Positions 45,968 through 56,080 of a DNA stretch of 56,628 bases are shown here, one piece after another; within the stretch, counting starts at the first letter, position 1, and each line of letters begins with the position of its first letter. Origin of the DNA: Abditibacteriaceae bacterium (lineage in GTDB: Bacteria; Armatimonadota; Abditibacteriia; Abditibacteriales; Abditibacteriaceae). The stretch spans positions 1 through 56,628 of the forward strand of contig JANMKN010000058.1 of the NCBI GenBank assembly GCA_031372065.1, in the 5' to 3' direction. The notes under the pieces are model-generated. The model worked only from the letters and a program-made list of their open reading frames with translations. It did not search any database and was not told where the DNA came from. A program made the position numbers and the translations under genes.

Positions 45968-46098
45968 GTTACTTGATTAAACCCCTGAAAAATGAGAACA
46001 TTGACATAGCGCGATTTTCAGGAAACATCACTATAAATTTGTGTTCTGCGCACAATTTATGACCTGCATTATTCAAATCCTTGCGCGTTCTGCTGACC

Positions 46099-49000
46099 AT
46101 GCCTTCCCTTCAAGATACTCCTACAATTGAACGCTTGAGTAGCGAAACTCATAAGTTTGGGATGCCTGAGCTTGTTGACCTGACCGGCCAAGCCACTTAT
46201 CGGCACATGGACTATCTTGACCTATTTCGTGAGAGACAAGGGGAGGCATTAAAACCGGATGCCGTGGCGGAATTTCAGGGACGCCCACTTGTGTATTTAC
46301 TTGATGGATTCACAGCAGAATACCCAGAAGCAGAACTGATTAATCTTCAACAGCTTCTTGCCAATCGCAGCGAACACGCTTGTCTGGCTATTGTGCGGCC
46401 CGGCGATTTGGAAGTGCGGCCCATTAATCTTAGCCGCCAGCAGTTGGAACAAGGCAACGAATTCCAATTCATTCATGCGACAGATGCGGCGGCACCTACA
46501 TTTTTCCAGAGCCTTGCCACTGGTAAATTCACCTTAGAAAATCAGCCTAAAAAAGCCGATTTCGTTTTCCATGAAATCCATAGTTTGCTTTCCAAAGCCT
46601 CTGAAGCCTTGATAGGTAAGTTGCCGCCGTTACAGGTTTTGTCTGTCATTGGGCGCGCTTTGTTTTTTCGCTTTTTGATTGATCGTAATATTGTGCGGGA
46701 AAGTGAACGAGAGGCAATTTGCCCGCAAGCGCAGGACTTATATGATGTATTTTCTGATGCGGAAAAGGCTGCCCAGATCTCTTTGTGGATGGATGTAACC
46801 TTTAATGGCGATCTGTTGCCACTTGTGCCTGAACTTCCATCCGATGTTGATAGCCAAGTTCGTCTTAATGCTTATCGAACGTTTTTCCAAGGGGCTGGAA
46901 ATGCTACTAACAACAAAGTTTTCCTTCACCAACAAGCGATTTTAAAAAGCTGGAAATCGCTGGATAAATCGGAATTTCAGCCACACCTTCCTGAGATTGA
47001 TTGGGACGACCTTGATTTCGCGCATATTCCTATCGGCGTTTTAAGTCAGGTTTATGAGACTTTTAGCCGTCAATGGGACGAAGCACACGCCACAGAAACG
47101 GGCGTTTATTACACTCCAAAAAACATTGCCACTTTGATGGTTGAAGAGGCTCTCGCAGGGCTTGATAATCCTGCCGAAGCACACCTTCTTGACCCAGCTT
47201 GTGGGGCCGGTGTTTTTTTGGTGCTGGCTTTTCGACATCTGGTGCAAAAGTGTTGGGAAAGAGATGGTAAACGTCCCACGACCAGCGTCATTCATAACAT
47301 TCTTTACGAACAACTGTGCGGCTTTGATGTAAGCGAATCGGCCTTACGATTGGCTGCTTTAGCTCTGCACATTATGGCTGTCGAATTAAATGGCACACAG
47401 CGCCCGCCGATTAGCCTCAAACTTCCGCGCCGCTTGCAAGATGAAGTGCTTTACAATTGGGGAGACAAAGAAGCCAATGCGAAGCGGCGTTTCGTGTCAG
47501 GTAGTCTTGGCCCAAATGTTCCTGAATCGTTTAATCAGCAGTTCGATGTGGTGATTGGAAATCCGCCGTGGACACGATTGCGCGCCTCCTCTGAAAATGC
47601 CGAAGAAAAGAAAGAAGAAAAGGCTTACAATGACGCCTTGAACAAGGAGTTCACTGCTACGGCCCGCCGCGTGTTGAAAGCGCGCAATGTGGACGAAGCC
47701 AATGCCTACGAGAATCCAGACAACAATCCTGATTTGCCTTTCCTGTGGCGCGCTGCTGAATGGGCAAAGCCGGATGGGATTATTGCGCTGGTTTTGCCCG
47801 CGCGCATCATTCTCAAGCAAGCTGGCAAAGGCAAATCCGCCCGCGATGCAATCATGCGCGGCTTTCAAGTCAACGGCATCATCAATGGTTCCGATTTAGA
47901 GAAAACACACGTCTGGCCCAATATGGATTTGCCGTTCATGCTGTTGTTTGCCCGGAACGCAAAACCGGAAGGCGAGCATCATTTCTATTTCGCTACACCA
48001 GTTCGAGAGAATCATTTGGCCGACCAAGGGCAGTTTCGGCTTGACTACAAATCCGCCGAGGCCGTTTCTGCACAGCAAGTGATTGATAAACCTTGGCTGT
48101 TGAAAACGCTGGGAGTGGGGGCAGTTTTAGATGTTGAAATAATCGAAAAACTTAAGCTCCACCGTAGCATGAAAGCTCTTAGTGAGCATTGGAAGAAGCC
48201 ATTGTTTTCAGGGAAAGGTTTCAGTATTGAACCTCGAAAGAAGTCTGAGGCACCAGAATGGCTAAAAAAGCTGCCTGTCTTGAAATCGCCTGTCGCAAGC
48301 TTTCGTGCTTCCCTTAATGGTTTGGACACTTTTGCTGAAGTCTATGGGGCGCAAGAACCTCATCATATGGCGATTGAAGAAATATATAAATCTCCACTCT
48401 TGATAATACGCAAGAAGCGTGGAGAAAAACGTGAAGCACCTCAGTCATTTCGCGTTTATGGAAAATCAATTTGCTATTCGCAATCATATTACGGATTTTC
48501 TGCGTCTGGTCATGCAGACGGTGAAAGTCTAATTTCTTTGCTCTATCTCATTACAAATAGTGTCCTTTTTCAACACTTTTGTTTGGCTTGTAGTTCAAGT
48601 ATCGGAGCACAACATAGAATTATTTTGAAAGAAGATTTGGATGCCTTTCCGTTTCCTTCTGTTTCGACAATTGAAAAACACAAACAGCATATTCTTGAAC
48701 TGGCTGATGCGCTCGAAAACTCATCCACCAAACCGTGGGGCGAAATTGATAAATTCATTTTTCAGCTTTACGGTTTAGATGAACACGACGCCCAAGTGGT
48801 GAAAGATACCGTTAAATATGGTGCGCCTTATCGTTCGGCGCGGCAACTCGCGGAAGCAGCACCGAAACCTGCCGAAGCCAATGCTTTTTGCGGCTATCTT
48901 GAAGAGATAATTCAGCCATTTTTTGATGTCGTAGATCAACGCGTCAATGTGTCGTTAGTGCCACCCTTGCAAAGCACTTGGGATTTGCCGATTGCGCCGT

Positions 49001-49245
49001 GGCGATTTTTGGCCATTGGCTTTGCTGGCGATAGCATTCCAACGCCGCCCAATTTGTTGGCGCAACTGATGGAGGAAGCGAATCGCACTGCGGCCAGTCG
49101 CGTTGTCATGCATATTCCCGAAAGCGGCTTGCTCATCGGTCTTTTAAATCAGCAACGCTTTTGGACATTAAGCCGCGCTCGTCTTTGTGGCTTGCATATT
49201 TTACGGGAGCATATGGACGCTTTTCCAATGCCGAATTTAAAATGA
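46099..49245 (+). CDS. Large gamma-class N6-adenine DNA methyltransferase with TRD (Eco57I/Type IIG-like)
   Basis: LSQVYE, GVYYTP, motif I LDPACGAGVFL, motif IV VIGNPPW, C-terminal EIDKFIFQLYGL. Confidence 0.9.
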   Translation: MPSLQDTPTIERLSSETHKFGMPELVDLTGQATYRHMDYLDLFRERQGEALKPDAVAEFQGRPLVYLLDGFTAEYPEAELINLQQLLANRSEHACLAIVRPGDLEVRPINLSRQQLEQGNEFQFIHATDAAAPTFFQSLATGKFTLENQPKKADFVFHEIHSLLSKASEALIGKLPPLQVLSVIGRALFFRFLIDRNIVRESEREAICPQAQDLYDVFSDAEKAAQISLWMDVTFNGDLLPLVPELPSDVDSQVRLNAYRTFFQGAGNATNNKVFLHQQAILKSWKSLDKSEFQPHLPEIDWDDLDFAHIPIGVLSQVYETFSRQWDEAHATETGVYYTPKNIATLMVEEALAGLDNPAEAHLLDPACGAGVFLVLAFRHLVQKCWERDGKRPTTSVIHNILYEQLCGFDVSESALRLAALALHIMAVELNGTQRPPISLKLPRRLQDEVLYNWGDKEANAKRRFVSGSLGPNVPESFNQQFDVVIGNPPWTRLRASSENAEEKKEEKAYNDALNKEFTATARRVLKARNVDEANAYENPDNNPDLPFLWRAAEWAKPDGIIALVLPARIILKQAGKGKSARDAIMRGFQVNGIINGSDLEKTHVWPNMDLPFMLLFARNAKPEGEHHFYFATPVRENHLADQGQFRLDYKSAEAVSAQQVIDKPWLLKTLGVGAVLDVEIIEKLKLHRSMKALSEHWKKPLFSGKGFSIEPRKKSEAPEWLKKLPVLKSPVASFRASLNGLDTFAEVYGAQEPHHMAIEEIYKSPLLIIRKKRGEKREAPQSFRVYGKSICYSQSYYGFSASGHADGESLISLLYLITNSVLFQHFCLACSSSIGAQHRIILKEDLDAFPFPSVSTIEKHKQHILELADALENSSTKPWGEIDKFIFQLYGLDEHDAQVVKDTVKYGAPYRSARQLAEAAPKPAEANAFCGYLEEIIQPFFDVVDQRVNVSLVPPLQSTWDLPIAPWRFLAIGFAGDSIPTPPNLLAQLMEEANRTAASRVVMHIPESGLLIGLLNQQRFWTLSRARLCGLHILREHMDAFPMPNLK

Positions 49246-49973
49246 GCGTTTCTGGTTTCTTTTCCAAAGGCATAAAACTATATGAATTGCCTCATCGTAA
49301 AGCGGAAAGGCAGTTACTTGTAGTCAATGACGCGGTGCGTTATGCATTTCGGCTTTTAGGAGCAGATCCGCCAAATGGATTTGTTCTAAACACAGCTTTG
49401 GAGAATGAAATAACTCGACAACTTCATTGGATTCTGGAAAATCGCTTGATGCATTCGAAGGAGGTCAATGGCTTTAGTGTATTGTGGTTCAAAAACGTGA
49501 GTCGGGCACCGGAATTGACGAATGTAGATGGTAAACATCCAGATAAAAAACCCGATCTCGTTTTTTCTTTACAGCGCGACAAAATGCCAGTATTATCCAG
49601 TCACGATGCAGTTTTTGCTGAGTGTAAGCCAGTAAATAAAGTTACTCACAAAATTCTGCCTAAATACTGTAAAGATGGACTAATCCGATTTATTAATGGC
49701 GACTATGCGTGGACAATGCGAGAAGGGTTGATGATAGGTTATGTAAAAGATGGCTTAACCATTCACGAGCATTTGGCAGATGAACTCGCTGAAGAAAAAC
49801 TTCATAGAGAAATGGGAAACCCAACCCCGCCGTCACAAGTTTCTGGCTCAGAGCCTACCGAACACGCGCAAGCACTTTATGTAACTACACACCAAAGAGA
49901 TTTCGATTGGACGCCAAATCGCGGCAAGGCGTGTGAAATTCGTATTTATCATTCGTGGCACTCCTGCGAATGA
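49242..49973 (+). CDS. Putative PD-(D/E)xK endonuclease partner of the methyltransferase
   Basis: ATGA overlap with the MTase stop. ENEIT...KKPDL...FAECK...YCKDGLIRFINGDYA...MIGYV. Confidence 0.65.
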   Translation: MSVSGFFSKGIKLYELPHRKAERQLLVVNDAVRYAFRLLGADPPNGFVLNTALENEITRQLHWILENRLMHSKEVNGFSVLWFKNVSRAPELTNVDGKHPDKKPDLVFSLQRDKMPVLSSHDAVFAECKPVNKVTHKILPKYCKDGLIRFINGDYAWTMREGLMIGYVKDGLTIHEHLADELAEEKLHREMGNPTPPSQVSGSEPTEHAQALYVTTHQRDFDWTPNRGKACEIRIYHSWHSCE

Positions 49974-53109: not shown

Positions 53110-53177
53110 ACACAAAGGACACTAAGGAAGTGGGAAATCTTTGTGTCCTTCGTGAAATCTTGCTGTCCTTTGTGTTG
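53107..53177. repeat. Short palindromic intergenic repeat
   Basis: AACACAAAGGACAC...TGTCCTTTGTGTT ends. Similar ACACAAAGAC motifs occur at 13668-13766 and 30812-30877. Confidence 0.5.
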
Positions 53178-53193
53178 GACAAGAGGAGAAACT

Positions 53194-53907
53194 ATGTCAC
53201 TTTTTGAAGACGTTATGCAGTTAGCTGTGCAAATGCCGATGGACGAGCGTGAACGCTTGGGCCGTGCGCTGGGCTTGAAATTGGAAGCGGCGATGCCCGC
53301 GAATCGCGGTTTGCCATTGATGAATCGCAACGCTGACCCCTCGAAAACCGATCCTGTTGCGTGGCGCAAAGCCGAAACCGGGCACGCGGTTTTGAACACC
53401 AATTTAGGCGGCGCGGTTAATGCAACAGGCGCTCCGGCTATTGCCGGAATGTGGAGCGAATTTGCCGATGAGTGGGAAAGCGAAGGCGAGGATATTCCGG
53501 TGCCGCTGGCTTCGTCGCTGCCCAAAGGTGCGCCGGTTTTGGCGCATACCGATATTTGTGTGGCATTGGCGCTGGGCCTTCCCGAAGCCGTGCAATTTTG
53601 GCAAACGCCGAATGTCGAAACACGCCTTGCCACAGCGACATATTTAACGCTGCTGGACGCCGCCGAAGACGACGACCAACTGGCCGCGTTGCGCGCTTTT
53701 GTGCAGCCGTTTGCCGTGCTGTCGCTTGGCCCGATGGCGTCCTCGAAATCGGTTGAACTGATGCTTAATCACAACTTGGAAACCGGCCTTGCCCCGCTGG
53801 ATGCGCTGATTGCGGCGACGGCTTTGGCCCATGAAATTCCGATTGTGACGTGTAATCCTGCACCGTTCCAAGGCATCGCCGGATTAGAAATCGTGCGCCC
53901 ATTTTAG
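53194..53907 (+). CDS. Antitoxin-like N-terminus fused to a degenerate PIN (VapC-like) domain
   Basis: GAGGAG RBS. PIN C-terminus DALIAATALAHEIPIVTCN..F..I.GL. N-terminal EDVMQLAVQMPMDERERL and a GMW motif. Confidence 0.75.
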   Translation: MSLFEDVMQLAVQMPMDERERLGRALGLKLEAAMPANRGLPLMNRNADPSKTDPVAWRKAETGHAVLNTNLGGAVNATGAPAIAGMWSEFADEWESEGEDIPVPLASSLPKGAPVLAHTDICVALALGLPEAVQFWQTPNVETRLATATYLTLLDAAEDDDQLAALRAFVQPFAVLSLGPMASSKSVELMLNHNLETGLAPLDALIAATALAHEIPIVTCNPAPFQGIAGLEIVRPF

Positions 53908-53941: not shown

Positions 53942-54511
53942 TTAACCATTTGGCTTGGCGCGAAGCGTGGATAATTCGTAGCGTCGCAAAACTTCGTAAG
54001 CGGTAATGCCAAAGGCCACGCTGATGTTCAGCGAATTTTTCAGGCCGCGCATCGGCAAATGAACAACCGCGTCACAGCGTTCCATCGTTGCTTCGCTCAG
54101 GCCGTCCACTTCGTTGCCAAAAACCAGCGCAAGAGGAAATTGCAAGTCGAATTCCCACAGCGGCACGCTGCGCTCGTTGAATTCCATCGCCAAAATCTGA
54201 CAGCCGCGCGCTTTGACAATATCCAGCGCGCCTTCGGTGGTTTCGCAGTGCTGCCACGGCACGACCTCGACGGCGCCAAAGGCAGTCTTCGATAAATGGC
54301 GATGCGGCGGGCAAGGCGTATAGCCGCATAGCAAAAGTTCGCCGATGCCTGCGCCATCGCTGGTGCGAAAGGCCGCGCCGACGTTGTGCGCCGAGCGAAT
54401 GTGATCGAGAACACCGTAAACGGGCAGGCGCGGCAAGGCAATGGCGTCTTCGGGTGTGATACGGTCTGAGCCATGTTCATGGCGCACGAAATAGTCTTGC
54501 GGCTTAGTCAT
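53942..54511 (-). CDS. TrmH/SpoU-family RNA methyltransferase
   Basis: LDHIRSAHNVGAAFRTSD, LVFGNEVDGL, LPMRGLKNSLNISVA. Confidence 0.93.
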   Translation of the reverse strand: MTKPQDYFVRHEHGSDRITPEDAIALPRLPVYGVLDHIRSAHNVGAAFRTSDGAGIGELLLCGYTPCPPHRHLSKTAFGAVEVVPWQHCETTEGALDIVKARGCQILAMEFNERSVPLWEFDLQFPLALVFGNEVDGLSEATMERCDAVVHLPMRGLKNSLNISVAFGITAYEVLRRYELSTLRAKPNG

Positions 54512-54542: not shown

Positions 54543-55409
54543 TTAAAAACTAACGCTGAGATTAACGCCCAAATTGCGCCCGCCAGTGGGCTTGCCAACG
54601 CCTAAAATGGTGGCACTGTAGCGTTGCCAATTGTAAGTGGCGGCCAAATGTGAGCGCACGCCATCGTGCAAAAGACTGCCGCTCCACGCGCTGCCAAGCG
54701 ACGCATTCACGCCCCACGGATAAAGCACGCGCTTTTCGAAACCGCTGTAACTCAAACCCACATACGGCGCGATGGGCAGGCCAATTTGAGGCTGTAAACT
54801 TTTGCTGAGGGTGGCGAAATAGGATTGGCCGTAAGGCGTGCCAATGCGGTCGCTGCTGGTGCCGAAAATCAGCGCCGGACGCGTCCTCGTTTCGCGCAGC
54901 GCGCGGTAATTGCCGACGATGCCGAGTTCGCTCACGCCCGCGTTGTATTCGAGGCCGAGGCGCAAATCGGGTGTGATTTGCCGCGTTAAAATAGTGCGAT
55001 ATTTGGCACGCGGAATTTGATTGGGAATGAAGCGTTGCGATAGCGACCAAGGCCGCGCCGTGTTGTCGGCTGTCCCCCGGACAGCGGTGCCCTCACCGGG
55101 TCAGCCCGGTCACGAAGGCACTAAAGACGCCGATTGTTTAGGTTTGAGTTTTGGCTTAGGCGGCGCGCCGTTGTTGCCTTCCAATAAGGCATCGAACAAC
55201 TGCGCGTAGCGTTCGGGGTCGGTTTGGAACAAGGTGCGGCACGCTTCATCGCGCAGATGATAGGTTTTGCCGCCGTATGCGACAGTTAAAGCGTCCGGCG
55301 CCGTCGAAAGGCAGCCTTCGATGTCGGTTTGTGGCCCGTTTTGCTGCGCCCACGCGCCTGTGGCAAGCAGAAAAACGCCAAGTAGGGCGCGCCAGAATGA
55401 ATTTTTCAT
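54543..55409 (-). CDS. Predicted 288-aa double-selenocysteine protein: signal peptide + YHS-like domain + UPGU (Sec100, Sec103) + outer-membrane beta-barrel-like domain
   Basis: The 99-aa ORF (55409-55110) and the 140-aa ORF (54965-54543) are in the same frame. The only stops between them are TGA 55112-55110 and TGA 55103-55101. Hairpins follow, and the protein ends in NLGVNLSVSF. Confidence 0.7.
55069..55110 (-). promoter_or_regulatory. Candidate bacterial SECIS-like stem-loops
   Basis: On the mRNA: CGGUG-AGGG-CACCG begins 11 nt after UGA1, and GCUGUCC-GGG-GGACAGC begins 15 nt after UGA2. An alternative ACCGGG-CUGA-CCCGGU hairpin puts UGA2 in its loop. Confidence 0.5.
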
Positions 55410-56080
55410 GGCGCGCTTTGGGTAGATGATCTTTCCATCTCGCTTTTGATAGCGGCTTCGATGTCTTGGTGTTCGCTTTTCGAGCCGAAACGCTTTATCA
55501 CTTTGCCATCGCGTCCTATCAAGACAAGGGCGGGCACCACCGAGACTTTATAATCCTGCCACAGCTTGGAAGTCGCCAAAAGTTGCGTGTAAGTCAGCTT
55601 TGTCGTGGTGCGTTCGACTAATTTGCTGTCCTCGTCAAGCGCGAGGCCGACGACACTAAAGCCTTGTGCGCCATATTTTTCGTGCCATGTTTGCAGTTGC
55701 GGCAGTGCGGCGACGCAAGGTTTGCACCATGTCGCCCAAAAGTCGAGTAAAACCACGCCGCCTTTGAATGCAGACAGCGCGACAGTTTGTTTTTTCAAGC
55801 CGCGCAGCGAAAAAGCGGGCGCCGGTTTGCCTTCGCCGGTATCGAGAAACTCTGCGGGGTTCTTTAAAAACTCAATTTTGCAATTATTGTTGCAAAAGGC
55901 GTAGTCTTGACCTTTTAAAGTGGCGTGCGCCTTGACTTCTTCAACGCCCGCGCCTTCACGCGGGCCACAAACGGCACAAATCGCTAAATCGGCATCGGCT
56001 GCGTGTTTGGTTTCGGCAGCTTGCAACGGGCTGAGAGCGAAAACGGCAAAGAAAGCGGCTAAATTCCATCGTTTCAACAT
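55406..56080 (-). CDS. Secreted YHS/TRASH domain + TlpA/ResA-like thioredoxin
   Basis: Signal LQA-A, CAVCG...YAFCNNNCKIEFLKNP, then PAPAFSL, LLDFWATWCKPC, cis-Pro VPALVLIGRDG. ATGA overlap with the downstream gene. Confidence 0.9.
   Translation of the reverse strand: MLKRWNLAAFFAVFALSPLQAAETKHAADADLAICAVCGPREGAGVEEVKAHATLKGQDYAFCNNNCKIEFLKNPAEFLDTGEGKPAPAFSLRGLKKQTVALSAFKGGVVLLDFWATWCKPCVAALPQLQTWHEKYGAQGFSVVGLALDEDSKLVERTTTKLTYTQLLATSKLWQDYKVSVVPALVLIGRDGKVIKRFGSKSEHQDIEAAIKSEMERSSTQSAP

Follow-up and report, generated by a model that had tools for sequence, protein, structure and literature searches.

The window analysed here, a stretch of 56,628 nucleotides from an Abditibacteriaceae bacterium (Armatimonadota; GCA_031372065.1, contig JANMKN010000058.1), carries on its minus strand at 54543..55409 a frame of 288 codons that is interrupted only at residues 100 (55110..55112) and 103 (55101..55103), by TGA in both cases, in the context V-P-S-*-P-G-*-P-G-E-G, and that ends with a Phe codon followed by TAA. 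An earlier note on this DNA had singled out these two in-frame TGAs at CxxC spacing and supposed that standard annotation would split the gene, and translation of the region bears out both points, as calling with table 11 yields a 99-aa ORF (55110..55409) and a 140-aa ORF with a TTG start (54543..54965). Read through, the product would comprise a predicted Sec-pathway signal peptide (residues 1–21, 55347..55409, with cleavage probably after A-W-A), a YHS-like domain (residues 33–75, 55185..55313, with conserved Cys 33 and Cys 57), a segment with the UxxU motif that is predicted to plug the lumen (residues 93–120, 55050..55133), and a 12-stranded β-barrel with a terminal Phe (residues 121–288, 54543..55049), all on the minus strand. 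The note had given the upstream part a signal peptide and a YHS-like domain. The former stands, insofar as the N-terminus is hydrophobic and signal-peptide-like by sequence and hydropathy (best 9-residue KD 2.82), and the latter must be toned down, as the match to PF04945 is weak (E 5e-4; 20.5 bits, under the cut-off of 30.3; best relative E 1.2e-8) and the domain is optional in the family, being present in 10 of 72 distinct loci. What the note overlooked is the gene immediately upstream (55406..56080, minus strand), which overlaps the start of the barrel gene in an ATGA and encodes an exported protein with a YHS-like domain and a TlpA/ResA-like redoxin (WCKPC), of the kind that is the family's recurrent partner. 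No sigma-70-like promoter was found at the locus, and terminator-like matches there occur at chance level only. A TrmH/SpoU-family methyltransferase gene lies directly downstream (53942-54511, minus strand), followed by a gene for a PIN-domain protein on the plus strand (53143-53907), and a 1054-aa ORF with a GNPPW motif, which we take to be DNA methyltransferase-like, precedes a 270-aa ORF at 46081-49973 (plus strand).

Pairs of in-frame TGA-x-x-TGA with more than 80 open codons before and more than 150 after occur five times in the whole genome, and the window pair is the only one of the five that a strong hairpin follows (−11.2 versus −1.6 to −5.7 kcal/mol). Both TGAs are covered without a single difference by contigs of two further runs of the same study, and this, together with the retention of the pair in relatives, rules out an assembly error. 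The linker behaves as the note had assumed it would: it is conserved, and residues 94–148 evolve as coding DNA, with differences at codon positions 1/2/3 of 6/6/26 relative to locus L012 (18 synonymous, 11 non-synonymous) and 12/11/26 relative to L013 (19 synonymous, 14 non-synonymous). The pair is also widely kept. Nine genomes among 61 relatives have a family match, with the read-through forms UPGU, UPSU, UTGU, and CPGU and a stop-free CAGC form, and a search of metagenomes with a database homolog yielded 76 loci, of which 71 have the UxxU form and one the CxxU form, three are cut by a contig edge and one has a frameshift. Across 301 genomes of the phylum there are matches in 49, at 64 places, with two TGAs in 44, one TGA in four, no stop in 16 and TAA or TAG in none; the motif residues were read in 31 of the 44 two-TGA matches, the other 13 not being read, and all 31 are UxxU. 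Of the 149 new representative proteins listed, 13 have a stop-free motif (11 CAGC, one CALC, one CVGW). The positions had been expected to hold TGA or Cys and never TAA or TAG, and so they do, except for the CVGW protein P0130, with Trp at the second position, and P0140 and P0176, which have no Cys there. Cys replaces the first residue in the two CxxU forms, L016 and L076, and in the CAGC form L021, and it replaces the second in the CAGC and CALC homologs. In a midpoint-rooted tree of 86 barrel sequences the nine CAGC forms make up one long-branched group, and the CALC form, both CxxU forms and the CVGW form are nested within UxxU clades. The TGA pair persists down to about 35% identity.

These data bear directly on whether the barrel is a gene of its own, either beside the upstream ORF or as the remnant of a pseudogene with nonsense mutations, an explanation that draws on hundreds of database proteins of 158–177 aa, all called hypothetical, that begin just past the motif. 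Indeed, a homolog search returned 544 proteins, and among the 120 listed the length is 158–177 aa and the barrel alone is covered. As the note had proposed, the barrel lacks a start and signal peptide of its own: of 71 loci, 6 have ATG as codon +5 past the second UGA and 31 have no ATG, GTG or TTG within 22 codons, and a signal-peptide-like hydrophobic stretch follows the second UGA in none of them, the best 9-residue KD over the next 40 residues being at most 1.56. Since starts are not conserved and a signal peptide is absent, a separate barrel gene is disfavoured, and the preservation of the pair to about 35% identity, the continuous Cys homologs, the covariation of the hairpin and the co-occurrence with sel genes described below all speak against two genes or a pseudogene, which we judge extremely improbable. 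The two TGAs very likely encode selenocysteines in one read-through protein.

The hairpin lies at 55069..55085 (minus strand) and has a 7-bp stem and a loop that begins with G (55076-55078), 22 nt past the second UGA and 31 nt past the first. We used the bSECIS criteria given in section 5 of PMC13188914, namely G at loop position 1 or 2, a distance of 16–37 nt after the UGA and an MFE of at most −7.5 kcal/mol. The window hairpin, at −11.2 kcal/mol and 22 nt, falls within these limits, as do those of 55 of 69 distinct Sec forms, 45 of which have the loop exactly 22 nt past the second UGA, so the bSECIS-like element that the earlier note had looked to is found. Control windows from the same genes pass in 48 of 202 cases, with scattered offsets; the 14 Sec forms that fall outside belong mostly to one clade with a weaker stem, and the CAGC form L021 falls outside as well. 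The first loop G is invariant in 66 sequences, seven of the eight stem pairs show changes on both sides, and covariation reaches 0.417 compared with at most 0.187 for slid pairings, in a comparison that favours the structure because it was derived from the same sequences. One hairpin could serve both UGAs, since its loop lies 31 nt from the first, still within the 16–37 nt range, and a single downstream SECIS for both UGAs has been proposed for UXXU hydrogenases in the available part of PMC13582414. A single hairpin at a fixed distance, combined with natural UxxU, CxxU, and CxxC variants, would make this family a clean system in which to test one bSECIS for two UGAs.

The host genome (G000) encodes the machinery that such decoding requires: selA, selB, selD, and tRNA-Sec(UCA) are all present and all score over curated cut-offs, with selA, selD, and tRNA-Sec(UCA) clustered on contig C287 and selB on C44, so the note's expectation of Sec machinery proved correct. 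In the phylum, selA is found in 38 of 40 two-TGA genomes, and the other two, which are 86% and 92% complete, have selB, against a baseline of 29/61; we give no P value for this co-occurrence because kin are not independent. Two genomes that are 98% complete and lack selA, selB, and tRNA-Sec carry the CAGC form. A perfect anticorrelation of sel genes with the Cys form was considered and rejected, as G113 and G277 have stop-free matches only, yet possess selA, and the link between sel genes and the TGA pair therefore runs one way. In a genome of the same genus (G002, 79% complete) a partial selA match interrupted by TAA (C8:669523-669951) goes with the absence of a barrel match, possibly a joint loss. 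Sec decoding is probably in general use in G000, given that three AhpC/TSA-like genes (C351:59035-59439, minus strand; C355:33182-33568, plus strand; C65:5285-5629, minus strand) and one CMD-like gene (C129:12380-12628, minus strand) likewise contain an in-frame TGA with a hairpin downstream and are likely further selenoproteins. These genes led us to reject the idea that the genome owes its Sec trait to the barrel alone. The selD gene carries a TGA of its own, and the hairpins at selD and at the TGA-containing redoxins resemble that of the barrel gene; the four molybdopterin genes of G000 contain no in-frame TGA. Two crude genome-wide TGA scans of G000 gave mostly noise, and one such scan pointed to a possible heavy-metal-associated domain with UxxC on the minus strand of C193 (context H-*-P-V-G-C).

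Two other ways of reading the UGAs were weighed. A code 4 or 25 in which UGA means Trp was rejected, because TGA terminates several family genes and homologs have Cys. Alternatively, read-through could be real with one or both UGAs read as Cys by means of a SelC*/tRNA-ReC, given that tRNA-ReC-like tRNAs are reported in five of five Armatimonadota genomes with UXXU hydrogenases (PMC13582414, available part). In G000, however, there is a single tRNA-Sec(UCA), a single tRNA-Cys of the ordinary kind (72 nt) and a single selB over cut-off, and no second selC-like gene was found in it by blastn, nhmmer or pattern search (genome 94% complete; 150 of 714 Rfam candidates scored), and we consider decoding as Cys very improbable. 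The Sec reading of the TGA pair is strongly supported by the sequence comparisons.

What is constant in the family is a unit of signal peptide, P-x-U-x-x-U-P-G-E and barrel, and minimal members consist of signal peptide, UxxU and barrel and nothing more. AlphaFold, run with an alignment of 150 rows, models 12 strands across residues 121–287 with a pLDDT of 87, and a single-sequence fold of a minimal member gives a pLDDT of 35. The terminal Phe (F288), which the note had read as the signal of an outer-membrane barrel, is present in 99% of the 150 rows, and the product is predicted to be such a barrel, as that note had it, here with 12 strands. Fold searches point the same way: KdgM (Z 16.3, rmsd 2.4, 154 aligned), COG4313 Pput2725 (Z 16.1, rmsd 2.8, 168 aligned), EstA (Z 15.8), and FapF (Z 15.7, rmsd 2.6, 170 aligned) are tied within one Z unit and are all 12-stranded outer-membrane barrels, and FapF is the best Foldseek match (E 2e-4). 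At the sequence level the barrel is matched by no Pfam family in 150 members, YHS alone being matched, in 4 rows, and no PDB sequence matches better than E 0.79. Likewise, the window protein matches no NCBIfam family at E up to 0.1, and at E up to 1 seven of eight homologs match none and the eighth matches through YHS only. Residues R126, R134, R138, E154, D187, R188, K203, D249, and H254 are invariant or nearly so, and by strand parity most of the invariant residues would face the lumen or the outer mouth.

The position of the UxxU motif relative to the barrel is suggested by where the structural alignments begin, as plugged barrels align from residues 93–102 and open porins from 117–122, which would place the UxxU segment (pLDDT 76–81) in the lumen, a placement taken from the alignment ranges and not from the model coordinates. 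In Pput2725 an N-terminal stretch of about 14 residues enters from the periplasm and occupies the lumen, according to the available text of PMC4493636. A different topology is that of an autotransporter, with the linker threaded through the barrel and the UxxU motif and the YHS or TlpA domain displayed on the cell surface. Autotransporter barrels are indeed tied or nearly tied in the fold search (EstA, with AIDA-I at Z 14.6 and NalP at 14.4) and align from residues 99–102, but a passenger is missing from many members, others have an exported TlpA encoded by a gene of its own, the linker is modelled as non-helical and no Pfam autotransporter match occurs in 150 members, which leaves surface display quite improbable. 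The plug could also be a gate, in which the Se-Se bond locks or frees the segment and TlpA opens or closes a small-solute channel. This segment aligns with those that occlude COG4313 and FapF, which fits such a gate, as does the bare composition of the minimal members; two Sec kept across two phyla are not obviously needed by a simple gate, and we regard this function as unlikely.

The TlpA-like CxxC redoxin is the recurrent partner of the barrel family. In 72 distinct loci it is fused to the barrel in 34, upstream in 11, downstream in seven and absent in eight, the contig being too short in 12, so that 52 of the 60 scorable loci have it either fused to the barrel or next to it. A second set of genome loci shows a TlpA motif within the flanks in 10 of 21, and the Cys forms of the barrel are likewise coupled to TlpA. 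Seven of the 34 fusions have His-rich linkers. By a rough pattern count, about 25 of the 34 (for example L045, L059, L061, and L067) have an additional Cys-rich N-terminal domain, CxxCW...CxxxC, before the redoxin. The wider neighbourhood was scanned in 36 picked loci (35 distinct), covering 123 of their 133 ORFs. Metal or metalloid genes (heavy-metal ATPase, CusA/CzcA, CDF, cupredoxin, ArsR, or ArsC/ACR3) lie within about 3 kb in 8 of the 35 distinct loci and in none of the other 27, a count made without a random control, and a ninth locus has a TolC-family gene nearby. The window neighbours that were checked (TrmH-like, PIN, and an ORF of no family) include no metal gene. A pattern scan of genome contigs gave one true relative and two copper ATPases that share YHS only. 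In one clade a protein of 545–600 aa is encoded directly upstream (L048:354-2042, L049:10-1809, L059:327-2000, L095:417-2051); none of the four matches Pfam, the three that were scanned against NCBIfam match no family there and one has a His/Met-rich N-terminus.

Based on these data we put forward a hypothetical mechanism, to which as a whole we give about even chances, in which the selenols of the barrel protein would be reduced by the TlpA-like redoxin and the resulting selenolates would bind a soft metal, such as copper, in the pore. Specifically, SelB and Sec-tRNA would read both UGAs, probably with the help of the one hairpin that follows them at 22 and 31 nt, and from the conservation of the sequence we hold read-through at both to be nearly certain. 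The product would then be exported and inserted into the outer membrane, a step made highly probable by the models, and residues 93–120 would probably, to judge from the structural alignments, become a lumenal plug as in the COG4313 and FapF barrels. The overlapping or fused TlpA would reduce the Se-Se bond, which the fusions and gene coupling make somewhat likely. Finally, the selenolates and the invariant lumen residues would form a metal site for metal uptake or handling; this is the weakest step and we consider it rather doubtful. The YHS-like Cys domains on barrel and partner, the His-rich linkers and the metal-gene neighbours count in its favour, and the many invariant Arg and Lys residues, which fit an anion better than a cation, count against it. 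We see a parallel in Bradyrhizobium, where the cysteines that bind copper in ScoI and CoxB are reduced by TlpA ahead of copper loading. There, TlpA acts in the periplasm to hold a pair of metal-binding thiols in the reduced state; here, its client would be a pair of selenols within a pore of the outer membrane. Diselenides have a low potential and are hard to reduce, and hence TlpA may not reduce the Se-Se pair. If it does service the motif, an undescribed redox or metal-handling route would exist at the outer membrane.

The cationic lumen (R126, R134, R138, R188, and K203) raises the alternative of a catalytic relay, in which electrons would pass from TlpA to the Se-Se pair and on to an anionic substrate in the pore (selenite, arsenate, polysulfide, disulfide or peroxide), so that reducing power is exported across the outer membrane. 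The CxxC, CxxU, and UxxU spacings are typical of redox motifs (PMC13188914, Table 1), 34 of the 72 loci have a fused TlpA, KdgM, the top match in fold, transports acidic substrates, and ArsC/ACR3 or ArsR genes are neighbours in two loci; among the metal neighbours, however, cation systems outnumber oxyanion systems, and we rate such a relay as unlikely, if by no means negligible. A broader form of the proposal, which we advance tentatively as somewhat unlikely, is that the family are redox-active porins in Armatimonadota and Acidobacteriota, in which periplasmic TlpA would feed a diselenide in a small pore and a heme-free selenium relay would act at the cell surface to reduce or capture metals and metalloid anions. 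If true, such a porin would be a new route for thiol-level reducing power across the outer membrane.

The catalogued UxxU selenoproteins, namely the Prx-like/SelL-type redoxins (PF00578), the metal-binding protein NF041115, the FmdB family, and UXXU forms of Group 4 [NiFeSe] hydrogenases, likewise carry a Sec pair spaced as in CxxC and have relatives with CxxU and CxxC, but here the motif precedes an outer-membrane barrel, and neither the window protein nor the barrel part of eight homologs has an NCBIfam match. At E up to 0.1 the HMMs NF041115, NF041027, NF049945, and the SelL-related NF040769 do not match the window protein. Sec in an outer-membrane barrel also has precedents, in the GSU2204/MtrB-PioB family (NF041027) and the FCYXU type of TonB-dependent receptor (NF049945; both PMC13188914, Table 1), which have one Sec, in contrast to the two Sec, the 168-residue 12-stranded barrel and the absence of CXXCH and of an HMM match here. 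Compared with COG4313 Pput2725 and FapF, identity is 9–11%, the strands and loops here are much shorter, and the plug carries a Sec/Cys redox motif, with a TlpA partner and no Pfam match. The KdgM/NanC porins, of similar size and with the best fold score (Z 16.3), are open channels without a plug (PMC4493636, available text) and align only from residue 121. The YHS (seleno)protein NF041384 likewise combines a YHS-like domain with Sec but has a GxU motif with one Sec; the window protein does not match it and a triple-YHS Cys homolog scores 22 bits where the cut-off is 70. The Geobacter porin ExtI has been linked to the reduction of selenite but is no selenoprotein itself (PMC5877670, available part). 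The family is not among the 119 prokaryotic selenoprotein families in Table 1 of PMC13188914, compared by name, domain and motif. A literature search that included the available parts of PMC9312934, PMC12013277, PMC13582414, PMC13326102, PMC4493636, and bioRxiv 10.64898/2026.09.15.751765 found no description of the barrel family, an earlier mention being possible; the four supplements of PMC12013277 contain none of six motif words, and the bioRxiv preprint presents less-characterised selenoproteins in a figure and in its supplements. Neither UxxU motifs nor outer-membrane selenoproteins are new by themselves; what is absent from the literature checked is a small plugged barrel that unites the two and has TlpA as its partner.

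Motifs with two Sec are seldom found, and the catalogue of PMC13188914 (Table 1) lists none on a small porin-like barrel. The family adds a widespread selenoprotein, with a member in 49 of 301 Armatimonadota genomes, and many relatives look acidobacterial, as the names on barrel-only proteins (Thermoanaerobaculia, Pyrinomonadaceae) suggest carriers in Acidobacteriota. The hundreds of hypothetical barrels in databases are likely truncated selenoproteins, and many genes called as TlpA likely represent the first half of a longer fusion gene. The barrel also has a distantly related paralog subfamily, seen at L134, L135, L136, L139 (second copy), and L140, in which CPLU or UPLU directly follows the signal peptide, and at L139 this paralog adjoins a UTGU member.
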